DNA of 64,000 nt from an uncultured Chloroflexia bacterium (lineage in GTDB: Bacteria > Chloroflexota > Limnocylindria > Limnocylindrales > CSP1-4). Positions 13,156 to 20,795 of the stretch are shown here, one piece after another. Each line of letters opens with the position of its first letter. Within the stretch, counting starts at the first letter, position 1. The notes under the pieces are model-generated. The model saw nothing but the letters and a program-made list of their open reading frames with translations. It ran no database searches and was not told the DNA's origin. Position numbers and translations under genes: made by a program. The stretch covers positions 68,135 to 132,134 of the forward strand of contig CAWDUR010000033.1 of assembly GCA_963805585.1 (NCBI GenBank), given 5' to 3'.

Positions 13156-14464
13156 ATGATGGCGGGCGACATGTCACTCCCGGTCATCGTCCTCGCAACC
13201 GCGCCGCCCGGCACTGCCGCGCGTCGCCCGGCCAGACTCGGGCTGCTGGGGGCGATCGCCGGCGCAGCGTTCCTGGTGGCGGTCGTCCTGGGTGCCCTGG
13301 CGCCGGCGGCACTGGCGCAGTCCGCAGAGCCGGAAGCATCGCCGTCCCTCGACCCTGTGCTCATGGCCGAGGCCCTCCGGCATCCTGGGCGATCACTACG
13401 TCGACGAGGATGCCCTGACCACGCCGGACCTCACGGCTGGGGCCATCCGCGGCATGCTCGAGGCGCTCGGGGACGAGGGGCACACGGAGTACCTCACGGC
13501 AGAGGAATACGCGGCAGAACGGGACGCCTTGGACGGACGCGTCCTGGGCATCGGTGTGGTCCTCGACCAGCGTTCCCGGGCACCGCTCATCATCTCGGTC
13601 ATCGACGGCTCGCCGGCCGATCGTGCCGGCCTCCGGGCGGGCGACGTCATCAGCAGTGTCGATGACGTGGAGGCGTCACGCCTGCCGCTCGACGACCTCG
13701 TCAGCCTGGTCCGCGGGGCGGCCGGTAGCCGCGTTCACCTTGGTGTGGAACGGCCGGGTGAGCCGGAGCGGCTCGAGTTCGACATCGTCCGCGAGGACGT
13801 CGACGTCGAGCCGGCGAGCTGGGCCCGGGTGCCCGGCAGCGATGTCGCGGTCGTGCGCATCGTGCAGTTCTCGCAGGCAGCCGGAGAGCGCGTCCGGGCG
13901 GCCATCGAGGCCGCGCTGGCCGACGGCGCCGGCGGTATCGTGCTCGACCTGCGTGGCAACCCCGGGGGACTGGTGCAGGAGGCCCTGGAGGTGGCGTCCG
14001 CCTTCCTGGACGGCGGCGTGGGCTACCAGGAAGCGGGCCGAGATGCGACCGCACGCGACGTGCTCATCCCGACGGGCCGCGTCATCGCTGCGGACATCCC
14101 GGTGAACGTGTTGGTCGACTACGCGACGGCCAGCAGCGCTGAGATCCTGGCGGCGGCCCTGCGGGACAACGGACGTGCTGCCATCGTGGGTGAGCCGACC
14201 TACGGCACCGGCACGGTGCTGAACACGTTCGCTCTTTCCGACGGCTCGGCCCTCAAGGTTGGCGTACGTTCCTGGCTGACCCCACGCGGAGCGACCGTCT
14301 TCCGCGTCGGTGTCCAACCTGACCACGATGTCGAGGCGGCACCCGGCGTGGCTTTGCTGCGGCCTGCCGACCTGGTGGGTATGACGACCGAGGCCTTCAC
14401 CGCCAGCGGCGACCTCGCCCTGCGTCGGGCCGTCGGTCTGCTGGAGCCCCTGGCCGCCGGCTAG
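13156..14464 (+). CDS. S41-family C-terminal processing peptidase (Ctp/Prc-like) with a PDZ domain; one frame break near 13385
   Basis: MMAGDMSLPVIVLA...LGLLGAIAGAAFLVAVVLGALAP (ATG 13156, ORF 13066..13665) continues in ORF 13292..14464. That ORF has the PDZ (LGIGVVLD...VIDGSPADRAGLRAGDVI) and the catalytic block (IVLDLRGNPGGLV...VLVDYATASSAEILAAALRD). Confidence 0.85.
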
Positions 14465-14559
14465 GTCGCCCGACCTCCGGGACCTTGGTCCTGTTGTCCG
14501 CGCGCACCGCGCCGGGCAGGCTTGGCTGGACCTGTCCAGCCAAGAGCGATGGAGGATCC

Positions 14560-15393
14560 GTGCCCGACCGCGCCCGCGTGCCCGTGCGGCGAATGCTGCC
14601 TGTCGCCGTCGCCTCGACGCTCCTCCTGGGGCTGCTGGCAGCAGGCCTGCTCAGTGCCGTCGGCGCCGCCCCGGCCGTAGCCGGCGATGCGTCACGGCGG
14701 GACCAGGTGCGCTTCATGTGGGCCATGGCGGGCCAGGAGTCGGGCTGGGACTACTTCGCCCGCAACGCCTCGTCGGGGGCCTTCGGGAAGTACCAGATCA
14801 TGCCCTTCAACTGGCCGGTCTGGGCTGCGCAGTACCTGGGCGATGCTCGCGCCGACCAGACGCCCTGGAACCAGGAGATGGTCGCCCACGGCAAGCTTCG
14901 CGACCTCTACGGCTGGCTCGGCTCCTGGAAGCGCGTGGCCTACTGGTGGCTGACCGGACGGACGGATCGGAACGAGCGGCGCTGGTCGGCCTACGCCCGG
15001 GGCTACGTCGAGAACATCATGCGTCTGCGCGCTCAGGCGCCCGCCGATGCGGGCGACCTGCCCGTGCGCACGAGCTCGCGCGCTGACCGAGGTGACTGGC
15101 GACGGGCGGCGCAGGACGTGAGGCTACGGTCCCGGCCGGCGGGATCGCCCTGGCGCCGGGGAGGGCGGGTCCGGGAGGGCGCGGTCGTCTGGGTGCATCG
15201 TGCGGCCGTGAGGGGCGGGCGCGTGCGCTGGATCGGCGTGACGACGCACGACGGTCGGTTCGGTTGGCTGCCACAAGCACGCTCACTGCCGTCGGCGCGG
15301 CCCCCGGGAGGGCGGGCCTGGCACGACATCCGCGATCGAGGAGGTCCTGAGGCGGCGGTGGACCGTCGTCAAGTGCGCCCGCGCCCACGTTGA
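14560..15393 (+). CDS. Secreted lytic-transglycosylase-like protein with a C-terminal SH3b-like domain
   Basis: GTG 14560 is preceded by GGAGG. Signal: MLPVAVASTLLLGLLAAGLLSAVGAAPAVA. SLT-like: AMAGQESGWDYFARNASSGAFGKYQIMPFNW. C-terminal: DVRLRSRPAG...VWVH...RWIGVTTHDGRFGWLPQARSL. Confidence 0.65.
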   Translation: MPDRARVPVRRMLPVAVASTLLLGLLAAGLLSAVGAAPAVAGDASRRDQVRFMWAMAGQESGWDYFARNASSGAFGKYQIMPFNWPVWAAQYLGDARADQTPWNQEMVAHGKLRDLYGWLGSWKRVAYWWLTGRTDRNERRWSAYARGYVENIMRLRAQAPADAGDLPVRTSSRADRGDWRRAAQDVRLRSRPAGSPWRRGGRVREGAVVWVHRAAVRGGRVRWIGVTTHDGRFGWLPQARSLPSARPPGGRAWHDIRDRGGPEAAVDRRQVRPRPR

Positions 15394-15416: not shown

Positions 15417-16634
15417 CTACCCGACCTCGACGATGCGGTAGTGGATCTCGGCGGCGGGCGTGGTGACCGTGACCTCCTCTCCGGCGCGGCGGCCGAGAAG
15501 CGCGCGTCCGACCGGCGACGCCGCGCTGATCCGACCGCTTGCGGGGTCTGCCTCCGCCGAGCCGACGATGGTGAGTTCGCCGCTGGAACCGTCCACCTCG
15601 TAGCGCACACGTGACCCGAGGGCCACGGAGGTGCGCGTCTCGGAGCGGATGACGACCGCTGTCCTGAGGCGCCGCTCAAGCTCCTGGATGCGGCCCTCGA
15701 GGAACGACTGCTCGTTCCGCGCGGCTTCGTAATCGGCGTTCTCTCGGAGGTCGCCCAGTTCACGCGCGTGCTTGATGCGATCCACCACCTGCGGCCGTTC
15801 GATCTCGCGGAGTCGCTCGAGTTCGGTCTGCAGGGCCGCAAGCCCATCCGCGGTGAGATGCGTCGGTTGGTCGCGGTTCGGTCCGCCGGCGCCTCCGACC
15901 GTCGACGTGGTGGCTGTCCGCCTCGCCGCGCGCGGCGGCGTGGATGGGGTCGAGGGTGCTCGCCGGCGGATGGTGGCGGAGGCGTCCGAGCGTCGAACGT
16001 TCGACGGCCTGTCAGGAGTGGCCTCAAGGCTGAGCAGCGATCCGCTCAGGCCGGTCACAGCAGCAGAGTCGGTTGCCGAGCCCAGGTTCGCCCAGGGCAG
16101 CGCCACCGGCTCGTCCGTGTGGCGAAGCGGAAGGCCCGTGGGAAGATGCTCGGCGAAGGCGCCCAGGAGGGCGTCCTCGTACTCTTCGTGCGCATCGGTC
16201 ACCGCCCACCAGATGCGCAGCCGCGGCAGGTCCCGCAGCGTCTTGAGCCAGTGTCCGCCCGGGTGGGGACGGCGATGCCCCAGCTCGGTGCCGTAGAGGG
16301 CCGCCACGCGGCCGGCGAGGCTCTTGCCGGTGCGACCCACGTAGAGCAGGCTTTGTCCTGCGATCCAGAACGACGCCAGACGGTTCGCCAGCAGGTTGGG
16401 AGTGGGCCGTTCGCCGTCGAGGCGCAGGTCCGGTACGCGCTCCAGCCAGCGCCGGACCGCGGCGAGATCGATGGGCGCTTGGGCCAGAGGAGCGTCGGTC
16501 TCGACCACGAAGACGCCCGGTGACTGGCTTGGCGGCGAGCTGCCCCAACGCGCCGGGCCATCGACGTCGAGCCCCAGGGAGCGCATCAGGCCTACGGTGG
16601 TCGTCGGGTCGGACATGCCGCAAGGGTGACACAT
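15417..16634 (-). CDS. greA: Full-length transcription elongation/cleavage factor GreA fused to a ~230-aa N-terminal domain (GIY-YIG-like, tentative)
   Basis: Intact 405-aa ORF. The C-terminal ~160 aa are canonical GreA: LTADGLAALQTELERLREIERPQVVDRIKHARELGDLRENADYEAARNEQSFLEGRIQELERRL...GSRVRYEV...TIVGSAEADPASGRISAASPVGRALLGRRAGEEVTV. The N-domain contains PGVFVV...LLYVGRTGKSLAGRVAALYG...HWLK...EEYEDALLGAF. There is no in-frame start codon near the GreA domain boundary. An alternative start lies at 16616 (MSDPTTT). Confidence 0.75.
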   Translation of the reverse strand: MCHPCGMSDPTTTVGLMRSLGLDVDGPARWGSSPPSQSPGVFVVETDAPLAQAPIDLAAVRRWLERVPDLRLDGERPTPNLLANRLASFWIAGQSLLYVGRTGKSLAGRVAALYGTELGHRRPHPGGHWLKTLRDLPRLRIWWAVTDAHEEYEDALLGAFAEHLPTGLPLRHTDEPVALPWANLGSATDSAAVTGLSGSLLSLEATPDRPSNVRRSDASATIRRRAPSTPSTPPRAARRTATTSTVGGAGGPNRDQPTHLTADGLAALQTELERLREIERPQVVDRIKHARELGDLRENADYEAARNEQSFLEGRIQELERRLRTAVVIRSETRTSVALGSRVRYEVDGSSGELTIVGSAEADPASGRISAASPVGRALLGRRAGEEVTVTTPAAEIHYRIVEVG

Positions 16635-16779: not shown

Positions 16780-19338
16780 ATGCTGCGAACGACCGGCGGC
16801 CAGGGGCGAGACGTCCTGCACCGCGCCGAGGCGGTCGAGCGGGCGTCTCGGGTCCATGGCATCCACTATTCGCTCGCCTTCGACCTGTCCGAGGACCGCT
16901 CCTCGTACACCGGCCGGGCGCGGATCGACTTCGAGCTTCGTCCCGGCGCCGCCCCGCTCTTCCTGGACTTCCGGGGCACACCGGTGCGCCTCAGCGTCAA
17001 CGGCAAACCGCAGGAGCCCGATCACCGGGACCATCGACTCTGGCTTCCGGATGAGCTGCTGGCGACCTCCAACCGCGTCGAAGTCGAGTATGAGAACGAC
17101 TTCGACCTGAGCGGCGACGGTTTCCACCGCTTCGTCGATCCGGAGGATGGGGCGACCTACCTCTACACCAACTTCGAGCCCTTCGCGGCACACCGGTCCT
17201 TCCCGTGCTTCGACCAGCCGGATCTCAAGGCCCGCTTCGGACTCGTCGTCGTGGCGCCCGGGACCTGGACGGTGGTCTCTGCAGAGGAAGCCGCGGACTC
17301 CTCGGCCCTCCCCGACGGTCGGCGGCGTCATGTCTTCCCCGCCACACCGCCCTTCTCGACGTACCTGTTCCCGCTGCTGGCCGGCCCGTACGAGCGTATC
17401 GACGATCGACACGGCGAGCTCCGTCTCGGCGTCCTGGGTCGCCGCTCCATGCGCCGCGAGCTGGAAACCTCAGCGCCGGAGATCCTGGAGATCACCGCGC
17501 AGGGCATGGCCTACTACGCCGAGCTCTTCGGCCGGCCGTACCCCTTCGCCAAGTACGACCAGGTCTTCGTGCCGGAGTTCAACGCGGGTGCCATGGAGAA
17601 CGTGGCAGCCGTCACCTTCGCCGACCAGTTCCTCTTTCGCGACCCTCCCACGTATGCCCAGCGCCTGACCCGAGGCGAGGTCATCCTCCACGAACTCGCC
17701 CACATGTGGTTCGGCGATCTGGTGACCATGCGCTGGTGGGATGACCTCTGGCTCAACGAGACGTTCGCCACGTACCTCTCCTATCGCTGCCTGGCCACGG
17801 CGACACGGTTCAGGGACGCTTGGCAGGTCTTCAACGGCGCGATGCGCCCAGCTGCCCATCGCCAGGACCAGCTCATCACGACGCACCCCGTGGCCACGGA
17901 CGTGGAGCAGACCGACCAGGCGGTGGGCAACTTCGACGCCATCACCTACGAGAAGGGTGCCGCCATCATCAAACAGCTCGTGGCCGCCCTGGGTGAGGAG
18001 GCCTTCCGCACAGGACTGCGAACGTATTTCGATCGACACGCCTGGGGCAATGCGAGCCTTGCGGACTTCCTCGCCGCCCTCGGCCAAGCCGCCGACGAGC
18101 CTCTTGAGGAATGGGCAAGACTGTGGCTGCAGACCCCTTCGTTGAACACCATCGGCGTGCGCTGGTCACAGGCCGATGGGTGCATCCTCGACCTGGTGGT
18201 CGAGCAGGACGCGCCAGCGGAGCATCCCGTCCTGCGTCCCCACACCACGACCCTGGCCCTGGTCGACCAGCCGGCGCCGGGCGAGCCGTTGGAGGTCCAT
18301 GGCCTGCCTGTCCGCATCATCGGCGAGCGGCTGTCCGTCGCGGAGGCCACTGGGCGACCCGCGCCTCTCTTCGTCTACCCGGACCTGGGCGATCACGACT
18401 ACGCGCTCGTCCGGCTGGATCCGCGATCGCTGGCATTCGCGCTGGAGCGCCTGTCGGACCTCCCCGATCCGCTCCTGAGGCAGCAGGTCTGGTCCGCGCT
18501 CCACGAGATGGTCCGCGCCGGCTCGTTGCGCCCTGACGTCTACCTGGCGACGGTCCGTCGCTTCGCACCCGGGGAAGCCGACCAGGCGCTGCTGGCCACC
18601 ATCCTCGAGCGCGCCGCCCTTGTGCTGAGGCGCTACCTGGCTGAGGAACGCGCACTCCACGAATCTCGACAGCTCGTGGCCGCGGCGGTGCAGGGAGCGC
18701 ACTCGACATCGCCCCAGCTCCAGCTCATCTGGGCTCGGGCCGCCATCGCCTTGGCCGCCGATGCGGCCGATGTCGACCTGCTTCTCGGCCTGGCCGAGGA
18801 CGGCTGGTCCGCCGAAGGCTTCAGGGTCGACCAGGAGATGCGCTGGTCGCTGGCCGTCAAGGCAGAAGCGCACGGCCTCGAAGGCGCCGCGGAGCGGTCA
18901 GCACGCGAGCTGCGGAAGGATCCCTCCGATCGCGGTCAGCGAGCCTTCATCCGTGCCCAGACCAGCCGTCCCGATGCCGACGTCAAGTCGGCCGCATGGC
19001 AGCGCATCAACGGCCAGGGTTACGGCTCCGACTATCTGACGCGGGCAGCCATCCGCGGTTTCCAATGGGTCCACCAGCGCACGCTCCTGGCCCCCTTCCG
19101 TGAACCGTTCTACGCGCAGCTGGGCTCGATCTTCGCCACCCGAGATCATGCCTTCGCAGGGTCCTACGCTCGAGGCCTGGTGCCGGATCGCTGGGCCGAA
19201 CCAGCGGAGCTTGAGCGCCTGCGGGCCTTCCGGGCGGGCCTCTCCGAGCACGAGGTCCTGCTGCGTCGCCACATCGACGAGATCTCGGACGATCTGGCCC
19301 GGGACATCCGGGTGCGCTCGTTCGCGGCGGCCTCCTAG
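16780..19338 (+). CDS. pepN: Aminopeptidase N (M1 family)
   Basis: Intact 852-aa ORF with GAMEN (FNAGAMENV) and the zinc motif HELAHMWFGDLVTMRWWDDLWLNETFA (HExxH-x18-E). Confidence 0.95.
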   Translation: MLRTTGGQGRDVLHRAEAVERASRVHGIHYSLAFDLSEDRSSYTGRARIDFELRPGAAPLFLDFRGTPVRLSVNGKPQEPDHRDHRLWLPDELLATSNRVEVEYENDFDLSGDGFHRFVDPEDGATYLYTNFEPFAAHRSFPCFDQPDLKARFGLVVVAPGTWTVVSAEEAADSSALPDGRRRHVFPATPPFSTYLFPLLAGPYERIDDRHGELRLGVLGRRSMRRELETSAPEILEITAQGMAYYAELFGRPYPFAKYDQVFVPEFNAGAMENVAAVTFADQFLFRDPPTYAQRLTRGEVILHELAHMWFGDLVTMRWWDDLWLNETFATYLSYRCLATATRFRDAWQVFNGAMRPAAHRQDQLITTHPVATDVEQTDQAVGNFDAITYEKGAAIIKQLVAALGEEAFRTGLRTYFDRHAWGNASLADFLAALGQAADEPLEEWARLWLQTPSLNTIGVRWSQADGCILDLVVEQDAPAEHPVLRPHTTTLALVDQPAPGEPLEVHGLPVRIIGERLSVAEATGRPAPLFVYPDLGDHDYALVRLDPRSLAFALERLSDLPDPLLRQQVWSALHEMVRAGSLRPDVYLATVRRFAPGEADQALLATILERAALVLRRYLAEERALHESRQLVAAAVQGAHSTSPQLQLIWARAAIALAADAADVDLLLGLAEDGWSAEGFRVDQEMRWSLAVKAEAHGLEGAAERSARELRKDPSDRGQRAFIRAQTSRPDADVKSAAWQRINGQGYGSDYLTRAAIRGFQWVHQRTLLAPFREPFYAQLGSIFATRDHAFAGSYARGLVPDRWAEPAELERLRAFRAGLSEHEVLLRRHIDEISDDLARDIRVRSFAAAS

Positions 19339-20585
19339 CGGTTTCGGCTGGCCCCGTGCACCCGCCCGCGGGTTCCGGCTGAGGCTGGTGCGCCACGGCC
19401 TCGTCCGCCTCGGCTGGCTGAACGCATGGCCCGGGAGCTGGGATCCACCTCGAAGCCTCGGACCTGGCGGACCGGCAGGTCCCGCTTCAGCAGCCGGTTG
19501 ATGGACTTCAGCTGATCCTCCTCTTCGAAGGAGACGAGCGAGATGGCCAGGCCCTCCATGCCTGCCCGGCCCGTGCGGCCGATGCGGTGCACGTAGTCCT
19601 CCGGGTCGCCTGGGATCTCGAAGTTCACGACCACCGGCAACGCCTCGATGTCCAGCCCACGTGCGGCAACGTCCGTGGCCACCAGGACGCGCACCTCACC
19701 CGACTTGAATTGCTCCAGCGCCCGCTCCCGCTCCGGCTGACTGCGGTCGCCATGGATGGCGGTGGCGGCCACGCCGTCGCGGTCGAGCTGGGCCGCGAGC
19801 CGGCGTGTCATCTGCTTGGTGCGCGTGAAGACGAGGACCTGGTGCAGGTCCCTCGAGCGCACCAGGTAGGCCAGCAGTTCGCGCTTCCGGTCAGCCTCCA
19901 CCAGATAGGCGATCTGGTCGACCAACTCGGCCGCCGAGATGGTCGGAGCCACGTCCACCGATGCCGGGTCGGTGAGGAAGGTGCTCGCCAGCGAACGGAT
20001 CTCGGCACTCAGGGTGGCCGAGAAGAGGAGGCCCTGCCGCTGTGCCGGGAGGAGCGCCAGGATGCGCCGGATGTCGTCGATGAAGCCCATGTCCAGCATG
20101 CGGTCGGCCTCGTCGAGGACGAGGACCTCGACCTGCCCGAGGTTCAGGGTGCGGCTGCCGGCATGATCGAGCAGCCGCCCCGGCGTGGCCACGACGATCT
20201 CCACGCCGGACAGCAGGTCGCGCTCCTGGGGGCCCATGGGCACACCGCCATAGACGATGGTCGAGCGCAGGCCGACGTGGCGGCCATAGGTCCTGAAGGA
20301 TTCGTGGACCTGGATGGCCAGCTCTCGCGTGGGCGCCACGACCAGCACGCGGATGGGATGGCGCGCCGGAGAGAACGACGTGTTGGCGTGGACCTTCATG
20401 CGTTCCAGGATGGGCAGGGCGAAGGCGGCGGTCTTGCCCGTGCCCGTCTGCGCGCGGGCCATGAGATCCCGGCCCGACAGGACGATGGGGATGGCCTGGC
20501 GTTGGATCGGCGTGGGCTCCGTGTAGCCCTCGTCGGCCACGGCACGGAGGAGCTCCGGGCTGAGGCCCATTCCTTCGAATGACAT
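19335..20585 (-). CDS. DEAD-box ATP-dependent RNA helicase (RhlE-like)
   Basis: Q-motif/motif I: YTEPTPIQRQAIP...AQTGTGKTAAF. Also DEAD (VLDEADRMLDMGF), SAT, and HRIGRTGRAG. The likely start is MSFEGMGL at 20585, with GAGGA upstream; the track start at 20612 is also possible. Confidence 0.9.
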   Translation of the reverse strand: MSFEGMGLSPELLRAVADEGYTEPTPIQRQAIPIVLSGRDLMARAQTGTGKTAAFALPILERMKVHANTSFSPARHPIRVLVVAPTRELAIQVHESFRTYGRHVGLRSTIVYGGVPMGPQERDLLSGVEIVVATPGRLLDHAGSRTLNLGQVEVLVLDEADRMLDMGFIDDIRRILALLPAQRQGLLFSATLSAEIRSLASTFLTDPASVDVAPTISAAELVDQIAYLVEADRKRELLAYLVRSRDLHQVLVFTRTKQMTRRLAAQLDRDGVAATAIHGDRSQPERERALEQFKSGEVRVLVATDVAARGLDIEALPVVVNFEIPGDPEDYVHRIGRTGRAGMEGLAISLVSFEEEDQLKSINRLLKRDLPVRQVRGFEVDPSSRAMRSASRGGRGRGAPASAGTRGRVHGASRNR

Positions 20586-20795
20586 GCACATCCTCTGGGT
20601 CGTCTGTGTCACCCACCCCGCAGGGCCAGGTCCAGGGTTGACACGTTCGGTTGGCGCTGTGGGCGCAAGGCACCGACCCAGAGGTGCCGATCCAGCGGTC
20701 GAGAGAGCGCGTCGCTGCGTTGGACAGCCAGTGTAGTCGCTGGCGTTCAGGCCGGGGTCGTCCGGTGTGCGGAGTGGGGCCGGTCCGGTGAGCGG

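Follow-up and report, generated by a model that had tools for sequence, protein, structure and literature searches.

The stretch of DNA analyzed here, a window of 64,000 nucleotides on contig CAWDUR010000033.1 of an uncultured Limnocylindria bacterium, carries on its minus strand, at 15417..16634, a single open reading frame (ORF) of 405 uninterrupted codons plus a stop codon, in which the transcription factor GreA is joined to a long N-terminal extension. The encoded protein has three parts: an N-terminal domain (N-domain; residues 1–204, 16023..16634), a linker (residues 205–255, 15870..16022) and a GreA module (residues 256–405). An earlier reading of the letters alone (the original prediction) had described the extension as ~230 residues long. 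The extension stands, but its size is better given as a structured domain of ~200 residues followed by a linker of ~50 residues. The motifs quoted in that prediction were all found, PGVFVVE at residues 39–45, LLYVGRTGKSLAGRVAALYG at 96–115, GGHWLK at 126–131 and EEYEDALLGAF at 150–160. As described below, the ORF encodes a single, genuine protein that has been passed on vertically throughout Candidatus Limnocylindria, a class of uncultured bacteria from soil and freshwater, and the fusion is a real, conserved and undescribed architecture.

GreA, one of the most thoroughly studied transcription factors of bacteria, is nearly always a stand-alone protein of ~160 residues. Its globular domain docks on the β′ rim (the rim helices) of the secondary channel of RNA polymerase (RNAP), and its coiled-coil finger enters the channel, brings the acidic tip to the active site and stimulates cleavage of backtracked RNA. 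The N-terminus of GreA remains outside the channel. In the window protein, the C-terminal 150 residues form a complete and canonical GreA. The Pfam family GreA_GreB_N (PF03449) matched residues 260–328 with an E value of 2.1e-26 (92.4 bits, against a cutoff of 24.5 bits), within the N-terminal coiled-coil finger (residues 256–328, 15651..15869, minus strand), and the C-terminal family GreA_GreB (PF01272) matched residues 335–404 with an E value of 1.7e-21 (76.4 bits, against 26.9 bits), corresponding to the globular, FKBP-like RNAP-binding domain (residues 335–405, 15420..15632, minus strand). E. coli GreA (1GRJ) was aligned end to end (E 1e-23), so that its catalytic residues D41 and E44 fall on D295 and E298 of the acidic tip, D295-L-R-E298 (15741..15752, minus strand). 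The segment that includes these two residues, ELGDLRENADYEAAR, is invariant among the aligned orthologues. The NCBIfam equivalog model NF001263 scored 163 bits against a cutoff of 145 bits and TIGR01462 scored 149.8 bits against 139, and the GreB, Rnk and long-fusion models in NCBIfam all remained under their own cutoffs. By sequence, residues 256–405 agree with GreA on every point that could be tested, and Pfam, the equivalog models and 1GRJ all bear out the predicted complete GreA with finger, acidic tip and FKBP-like domain. The window protein shares with canonical GreA the finger, the D-x-x-E tip, the globular C-terminal domain and a score above the equivalog cutoff, but differs from that stand-alone protein by its ~255 additional N-terminal residues, which make up a folded domain and a linker. 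There is no second GreA within the 64-kb window.

The linker is basic and of a disordered type, rich in Pro/Ser/Thr/Ala/Gly and Arg, with a net charge of +7; its composition confirms the Pro/Ser/Thr/Arg-rich linker that had been predicted. Linker length varies between 35 and 99 residues in 72 orthologues (median 64); P/S/T/A/G make up 67% of the linker, and its net charge is positive in 68 of the 72. Just after the N-domain, many orthologues (e.g., those at loci L018, L020 and L021 of the genome scan described below) and a set of paralogues (B-type, below) carry the motif P-x-T-R-V-V-x-V-P-D-G-D-A-E-G-A-x-G-E-P-P, in place of which the clade of the window protein has PSNVRRSD (15990..16015). 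The conserved segment may serve as a short linear motif for interactions, or add a further strand to the N-domain.

Codons 193–283 contain no in-frame ATG, GTG or TTG, so that a separate start of an intact GreA is impossible. The original prediction had made this point for ATG and GTG near the start of the GreA module, and it holds for TTG as well. The G+C content at third codon positions (GC3) in the ORF frame is 0.73–0.90 along the N-domain, linker and GreA, and 0.80 in the linker itself. Candidates for the true start of the protein are M1 and M7, the latter being used by several database gene calls. The N-terminal sequence MCHP (M-C-H-P; 16616..16634) is kept in orthologues, in some of which the first codon before C-H-P reads Leu in straight translation and is possibly an alternative start codon. 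A scan for promoter and terminator consensus sequences around the fusion gene found nothing.

Conservation of the fusion in Limnocylindria

Relatives were collected by searching 5.8 billion proteins with the N-terminal 204 residues. This search returned 189 relatives, some annotated as fused to GreA and many apparently unfused. In addition, one genome per GTDB species was scanned, yielding 339 loci, of which the best 80 are the basis of the locus counts given here. These 80 are all from Limnocylindria-type Chloroflexota metagenome-assembled genomes (MAGs). In 71 of the 80, the N-domain and GreA share one reading frame without an intervening stop, so that the fusion, which the original prediction had proposed to look for in related genomes, is conserved in frame at the level of species. 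The remaining nine loci consist of five out-of-frame “MFD” MAGs, which are long-read (Nanopore) assemblies, one locus with a run of N in the linker (L014) and three paralogues without GreA.

The closest of the “unfused” relatives in the protein search, P0001 and P0003, lie among genes that are split as well, and what follows their N-domain is GreA in another frame. Frameshifts are frequent in the long-read MAG contigs of this high-GC lineage (L001, L002, L004, L017, L028, L031 and L068); L001, for example, has a truncated M1 peptidase and an adenosine deaminase broken into two pieces. Database gene calls therefore systematically under-report the fusion, presenting it as a “hypothetical protein” and a short GreA.

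We considered the possibility that faulty assembly or a frameshift error within the high-GC linker had merged two adjacent genes. The linker is open in all three frames, and some database relatives (P0001 and P0003) are called as separate genes. However, the same in-frame fusion is present in 71 of 80 independent genomes, many of them from short-read assemblies, and the split cases are either long-read MAGs with broken neighbours or the locus with the N-run. A separate GreA would lack a start codon. Furthermore, GC3 is steady across the linker, and the linker is colinear at the protein level, residue by residue, with orthologues of independent assemblies, including the short-read locus L005. 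Because of this in-frame conservation, steady GC3 and colinearity, we reject the artefact, to which we assign a negligible probability. Programmed frameshifting, suggested by the many out-of-frame database relatives, was also rejected: out-of-frame cases are limited to long-read MAGs and a scaffold gap, and the neighbouring genes are broken as well.

The N-terminal domain compared with GIY-YIG enzymes

The original prediction had tentatively likened the N-terminal extension to a GIY-YIG nuclease core. We consider it likely that the N-domain is a divergent domain of the GIY-YIG superfamily with a two-helix insertion in its β-hairpin, based on profile–profile comparison, the order of motifs, the predicted topology and genomic context. 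AlphaFold2, using an alignment of 62 sequences, predicted the N-domain with a predicted local distance difference test score (pLDDT) of 91.6 and a predicted template modelling score (pTM) of 0.88. The secondary structure elements follow the order β(25–30), β(40–50), α(57–66), α(79–87), β(94–102), α(106–115), α(128–132), β(140–145) and α(149–163), and the order in the core of the model, β-β-α-α-β-α, has a topology compatible with GIY-YIG.

The features of the domain, all on the minus strand, were assigned from this model and from hhalign comparisons. The equivalent of the “GIY” strand, β1, is PGVFVVE (residues 39–45, 16500..16520), which aligns with the GVY of UvrC once the insertion is excised and places F42 at the position of the general-base Tyr. 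The insertion itself (~45 residues, 49–93, 16356..16490), delimited by the AlphaFold2 model and by a sliding-excision scan, comprises two helices and lies within the GIY/YIG β-hairpin. It is followed by the “YIG” strand, β2, and the Arg helix (LLYVGRT..SLAGRVAALYG, residues 94–115, 16290..16355), which form the core of the hhalign match and contain Y98, G100, R109 and, at Arg+4, L113. Strand β3 (RIWWAV) and the acidic helix EEYEDALLGAF (residues 140–163, 16146..16217) include E153, a putative metal-binding Glu, assigned from the model and from class-wide conservation in a region where hhalign has low confidence. The PWAN motif (residues 180–183, 16086..16097), in which P180 and N183 are conserved, provides N183 as the putative GIY-YIG Asn, by motif order alone. 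Position 42 and Y98 are separated by 55 residues, including the two predicted helices, compared to a canonical GIY-YIG spacing of ~10–11 residues. The GVF-to-YVG spacing is thus as unusually long as had been predicted, and corresponds to the ~45-residue insertion.

A GIY-YIG reference set of six sequences (UvrC of E. coli, T. maritima and B. subtilis, I-TevI, YhbQ and Slx1) was assembled, and each sequence was verified against PF01541 (41–69 bits; cutoff 22.6 bits). The intact family profile matched this set over the YIG strand and Arg helix with a probability of 41% (P 2.8e-4) in hhalign. When residues ~49–93 were excised, the probability rose to 89–94% (P 2e-7 to 2e-6), and the alignment covered the GIY strand, YIG strand and Arg helix. 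An unbiased scan with a sliding 44-residue excision gave a sole peak, at residues 46–95, and the signal collapsed upon removal of the YIG/Arg segment. Controls were much weaker, with P 0.32 for GreA against GIY-YIG and P 0.004 for the reversed family. An extended, low-confidence alignment matched IWWAVT to β3 and the EEYED helix to the helix that carries the Glu.

Distant members of the family read GVY...ILYIGKAGTSIKKRVGQYY, close to UvrC, which reads GVY...VIYVGKAKDLKKRLSSYF. Three of these distant members had weak matches to Pfam GIY_YIG_2 exactly at the GVY...ILYIGKAGTSIKKRVGQYY motif (E 0.003–0.09, below the cutoff), and distant members scored 13–18 bits with the curated GIY-YIG models PF01541 and PF20815, against a cutoff of 22.4 bits. 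The positions conserved in all architecture classes of the family (see below) are Y98, G100, R109, T116, G119, P123, G127, E153, P180 and N183, which include the canonical Tyr-Gly-Arg-Glu-Asn set of GIY-YIG in the canonical order. R109 is kept in 106 of 110 sequences of the GreA class and in all other classes, and E153 and N183 are ~30 residues apart. The predicted resemblance to GIY-YIG is thus supported by hhalign, the excision scan, the weak GIY_YIG_2 matches and the conservation of these five residues.

A profile search of the PDB matched the GreA part alone, apart from a weak, recurrent match to PA2021 (1ywy). This match covers residues 30–78 (approximately 16400..16545), i.e., β1 and the start of the insertion, with E 0.17–0.5 to 1ywy_A, a hypothetical protein of 74 residues (PA2021) from Pseudomonas aeruginosa. 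It possibly points to where the inserted segment came from.

Relatives of the N-terminal domain and chromosomal context

An exhaustive profile search over 1.84 billion representative proteins returned 1,075 clusters (50% identity) at E ≤ 1e-3, 373 of which were below 1e-30. The N-domain family is large and absent from Pfam and NCBIfam, and more than 1,000 clusters (50% identity) are hereby brought together as a newly defined protein family. The public names of the relatives are only “hypothetical protein” or “GreA”, and a search of viral contigs found no N-domain relatives.

The family occurs in four architectures: the N-domain with GreA (~400 residues), a B-type (~295 residues), a C-type (~310–335 residues) and a stand-alone form (~200 residues). 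The B-type, which is also found in Limnocylindria, joins the N-domain to a winged-helix-like C-terminal domain. Its members, the paralogues at L049–L051 (e.g., L051 3182..5032, plus strand) and the proteins P0090 and P0106, have an N-domain of the F42/EEYED type, a similar linker and a C-terminal domain of ~80 residues, predicted to form three helices followed by a β-hairpin. Winged-helix proteins dominate the Foldseek neighbours of this C-terminal domain, none of them significant (E ≥ 0.29). In the C-type, the N-domain is followed by a C-terminal domain of ~90 residues with the consensus TAxDxxAGRIRIP...LFP...RWDPRxGPxRERSGVL, for which there was no match in Pfam or among PDB sequences, and a profile search of the PDB was uninformative.

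Members of the C-type (L085 1787..2785, which is P0227, and loci L089–L168) lie in defence islands. P0227 adjoins genes for RE_Eco29kI, Vsr, a C5-methylase and an Mrr-helicase. P0178 is followed by a gene for a DUF3427-HNH protein and P0247 by RecC/RecB-like genes. The stand-alone protein P0198 (198 residues; L083 5001..5597) is encoded inside a class 1 DISARM operon with the order DrmD-DrmMI-P0198-DrmA-DrmB; it is absent from PADLOC and may be an unrecognised DISARM accessory nuclease. In a bulk scan of the non-GreA branch (129 neighbouring ORFs from 39 metagenome loci), Pfam matches included ResIII, Schlafen-type helicases, GmrSD, SIR2_2, Mrr_cat, Eco57I/MmeI methylases, HNH_2 and BrxL, and PADLOC matches included PglW, PglX, MkoA/C, pAgo with SIR2, HerA and GajB. 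The non-GreA relatives sit in defence islands (e.g., DISARM, BREX, Mokosh and restriction–modification), keep the full catalytic set and look like intact nucleases.

The chromosomal position of the fusion gene is stable. A DEAD-box helicase gene lies upstream on the same strand in 62–64 of the 80 loci; it is directly adjacent to the fusion gene (~90–380 nucleotides) in eight, and elsewhere a single gene on the opposite strand, either for an M1 peptidase or β-lactamase-like, lies between them. The window has the M1 arrangement, with the DEAD-box RNA helicase at 19335..20612 (minus strand) and the M1 aminopeptidase between it and the fusion gene at 16780..19338 (plus strand). This conserved same-strand neighbour suggests an ancestral helicase–GreA pair. 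PADLOC gave no match for the fusion protein, and there are no defence neighbours in the window.

The active site and possible roles at RNA polymerase

Structures of Hpy188I with DNA have identified the GIY Tyr as the general base, a Tyr or His at Arg+4 of the helix as its proton-shuttle partner, and the YIG Tyr together with the Gly, Arg and Glu as residues that contact the scissile phosphate and metal (PMC3045582). The window protein retains Y98, G100, R109 and E153, but has F42 at the general-base position and L113 at the shuttle position. The same holds for most of its orthologues: of 110 sequences fused to GreA, 84 have F and 21 have Y at position 42, where all 11 C-type relatives have Y, and 99 have L, I or M at position 113, where nine C-type relatives have Y and two have F. 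The GreA-fused branch has also gained invariant W142 and W143 and the invariant run E150-E151-Y152-E153-D154. The N-domain is thus strongly constrained, but the GreA-fused branch has lost the canonical general-base pair. The “possibly nucleolytic” label of the original prediction is favoured by the retention of Y98, G100, R109, E153 and N183, and undercut by F42 and L113 at the positions of the general base and the shuttle.

The domain satisfies the description of a GIY-YIG enzyme only in part, and several results weigh against the assignment. Foldseek searches of the N-domain model against the PDB and BFVD found no significant neighbour; the top PDB match was a GIY-YIG enzyme, R.Eco29kI (E 0.57, template modelling score 0.30), and the best BFVD match (E 0.023) was an uncharacterised phage protein, neither of them significant. 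No family member reached the Pfam gathering score for GIY-YIG, and the window protein had no such match at E ≤ 10. The second half of the hhalign alignment, which would contain the Glu and Asn, is of low confidence, and hhalign found no match to a single Eco29kI-like sequence from L085, one-sequence profiles being insensitive. The model and searches that the original prediction had proposed for the N-domain thus delivered a confident fold and a profile link to GIY-YIG, but not a significant structural match. These results leave room for the alternative that the N-domain is unrelated to GIY-YIG, i.e., a new α/β fold for protein contacts, with RNAP, the syntenic DEAD-box helicase or the ribosome as examples of partners, and that the likeness of motifs is convergent or due to chance. 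The conserved linkage to the helicase would fit such a role, and the many invariant Trp and acidic residues could make a protein-binding surface. In searches of Pfam, NCBIfam and PDB sequences at E ≤ 10, the N-domain had no match, the Limnocylindria sequences are without Pfam and NCBIfam matches, and 41 family members scanned singly against Pfam revealed no recurrent family. Moreover, the hhalign match spans only ~45 columns, and a probability above 90% required removal of the insertion. On the other hand, the sliding-excision scan and the negative controls are specific, and the weak GIY_YIG_2 matches in distant members fall independently on the same motif. The motif order is right, the residues conserved in all classes are the canonical set, and the nuclease-rich defence islands of the relatives suit a nuclease family. 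A fold unrelated to GIY-YIG is in our judgement quite unlikely.

With regard to function, we put at about even odds that the N-domain is a nucleic-acid-binding, anchoring or sensing module tethered to RNAP, in which canonical GIY-YIG hydrolysis has been lost or strongly altered. What favours a binding role is the substitution of the general-base pair, together with the free exchange between Y and F from one orthologue to the next. The GreA part would dock on the RNAP rim, with its finger bringing D295 and E298 to the active site. Since the GreA N-terminus lies outside the channel, the N-domain would be leashed near the channel mouth, and such a leash is sterically compatible with normal GreA function. 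The N-domain and the basic linker would then act within roughly 100–200 Å of the channel mouth, within reach of downstream or upstream DNA, or of RNA extruded from a deeply backtracked complex. They may bind nucleic acid (DNA or extruded 3′ RNA) near a stalled or backtracked elongation complex, and in this way may hold GreA in place, guide it or sense what state the complex is in. The N-domain was presumably recruited from a family whose other members stand alone or have other C-terminal partner domains. Not everything fits this picture: nucleic-acid binding by the N-domain or linker is a property that we infer, Tyr42 is present in 21 of the 110 GreA-fused sequences, and the strict conservation of E153, EEYED and N183 would be expected of a working site, so that catalysis by a modified mechanism is possible.

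These last two observations lead to the view that the N-domain is an active nuclease, of GIY-YIG type or mechanistically modified, tethered by GreA to arrested complexes, where it would nick DNA in a UvrC-like, transcription-coupled incision or cut long extruded 3′ RNA or R-loop strands. Y98, G100, R109, E153 and N183 are conserved in the GreA class, the EEYED run is invariant, and the relatives resemble bona fide nucleases of defence systems. An N-terminal GIY-YIG domain, flexible linker and targeting domain is also the plan of GIY-YIG homing endonucleases (PMC3664794). However, the general-base Tyr is Phe in 76% of the fused orthologues and the shuttle partner is aliphatic in ~90%, the free interchange of Y and F implies no selection on the hydroxyl, and a constitutive RNAP-tethered DNase would be hazardous. 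On balance, we regard an active nuclease as rather unlikely. A more specific and bolder proposal, which we hold to be improbable, is that a defence-island nuclease has become a catalytically active accessory of the housekeeping GreA, cutting nucleic acid at irreversibly arrested or deeply backtracked RNAP, perhaps the template or non-template DNA, a strand of an R-loop or long 3′ RNA that has been extruded. If true, the rescue of stalled transcription would be coupled to the incision of DNA or RNA by a new route that is built into the factor itself and needs neither Mfd nor UvrABC. The defence associations of the N-domain family raise yet another possibility, namely that the protein is not the housekeeping Gre factor, but primarily an immune surveillance factor that senses or attacks RNAP transcribing invader DNA. 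Fusions of GreA/B-C to nuclease effectors are predicted to act on hijacked RNAP in conflict systems (PMC8195603). Against this, the gene is near-universal and syntenic in the class, whereas defence genes are usually patchy, and it encodes a full GreA that scores as an equivalog rather than the C-terminal domain alone, without a PADLOC match and without defence neighbours in the window. An immune role is, accordingly, very unlikely in our view.

The predicted conflict systems, described by Kaur, Burroughs, Iyer and Aravind (2021), combine GreA/B-C with TPR and PIN domains and variable N-terminal effectors (PMC8195603). They resemble the window protein in that a Gre domain that binds the RNAP secondary channel is covalently joined to nuclease-type domains and is proposed to act on nucleic acid at RNAP. 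Their Gre part, however, is limited to the C-terminal domain and is combined with TPR and PIN, and their distribution is patchy. By comparison, the window protein has a full GreA with the catalytic finger, no TPR or PIN in Pfam and no PADLOC match, and is class-wide and syntenic. Precedents for a C-terminal GreA in a long protein are found in NCBIfam models NF004969 (“transcript cleavage factor/unknown domain fusion protein”, 718 residues) and NF011309 (906 residues). The window protein scored 45.8 bits against 697 for NF004969 and 90.2 against 714 for NF011309, with the match confined to the GreA part, and the N-terminal region of these models is unrelated to the window N-domain, which is much shorter.

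The arrangement is also similar to that of modular GIY-YIG nucleases such as UvrC (its N-terminal domain) and the homing endonucleases I-TevI/I-BmoI, in which a flexible linker connects a GIY-YIG-type domain at the N-terminus to a targeting domain at the C-terminus. The YIG Tyr and Gly, the helix Arg and the putative Glu and Asn come in the same order (hhalign P ~2e-7 after excision). The window protein differs from these enzymes by the ~45-residue insertion, F42, the aliphatic residue at Arg+4, the ~30-residue Glu–Asn spacing and its sub-threshold Pfam scores, and its targeting domain is an RNAP-binding factor instead of a DNA-binding domain. R.Eco29kI (3MX4), the best-ranked, although non-significant, PDB neighbour of the N-domain model, also has elaborations around its GIY-YIG core. 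An RE_Eco29kI gene adjoins the C-type member P0227, yet the Eco29kI-like sequence has no match to the family profile. A search of the papers in the searchable library for GreA and GIY-YIG, both as whole words, found none that mentions the two, and no prior description of the architecture was found, in agreement with the original prediction.

The fusion would illustrate clearly how a nuclease domain from defence islands can be domesticated by a core transcription factor, and it amounts to a natural experiment on which additions are useful at the secondary channel of RNAP. It bears on possible connections of backtracked or arrested complexes with DNA repair, the handling of R-loops and replication conflicts. 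An active N-domain would mean transcription-coupled incision of a new kind; an inactive one would be a clean case of a pseudo-nuclease that now serves as an anchor on nucleic acid.

Downstream of the fusion gene and convergent with it lies a gene for a protein of 302 residues (14485..15393, plus strand) with a borderline match to SLT transglycosylase (20.7 bits, against a cutoff of 21.3 bits). Upstream of this SLT-like gene is a gene for an S41/PDZ tail-specific protease (13292..14464), and the pairing of the two is kept only in the closest relatives.

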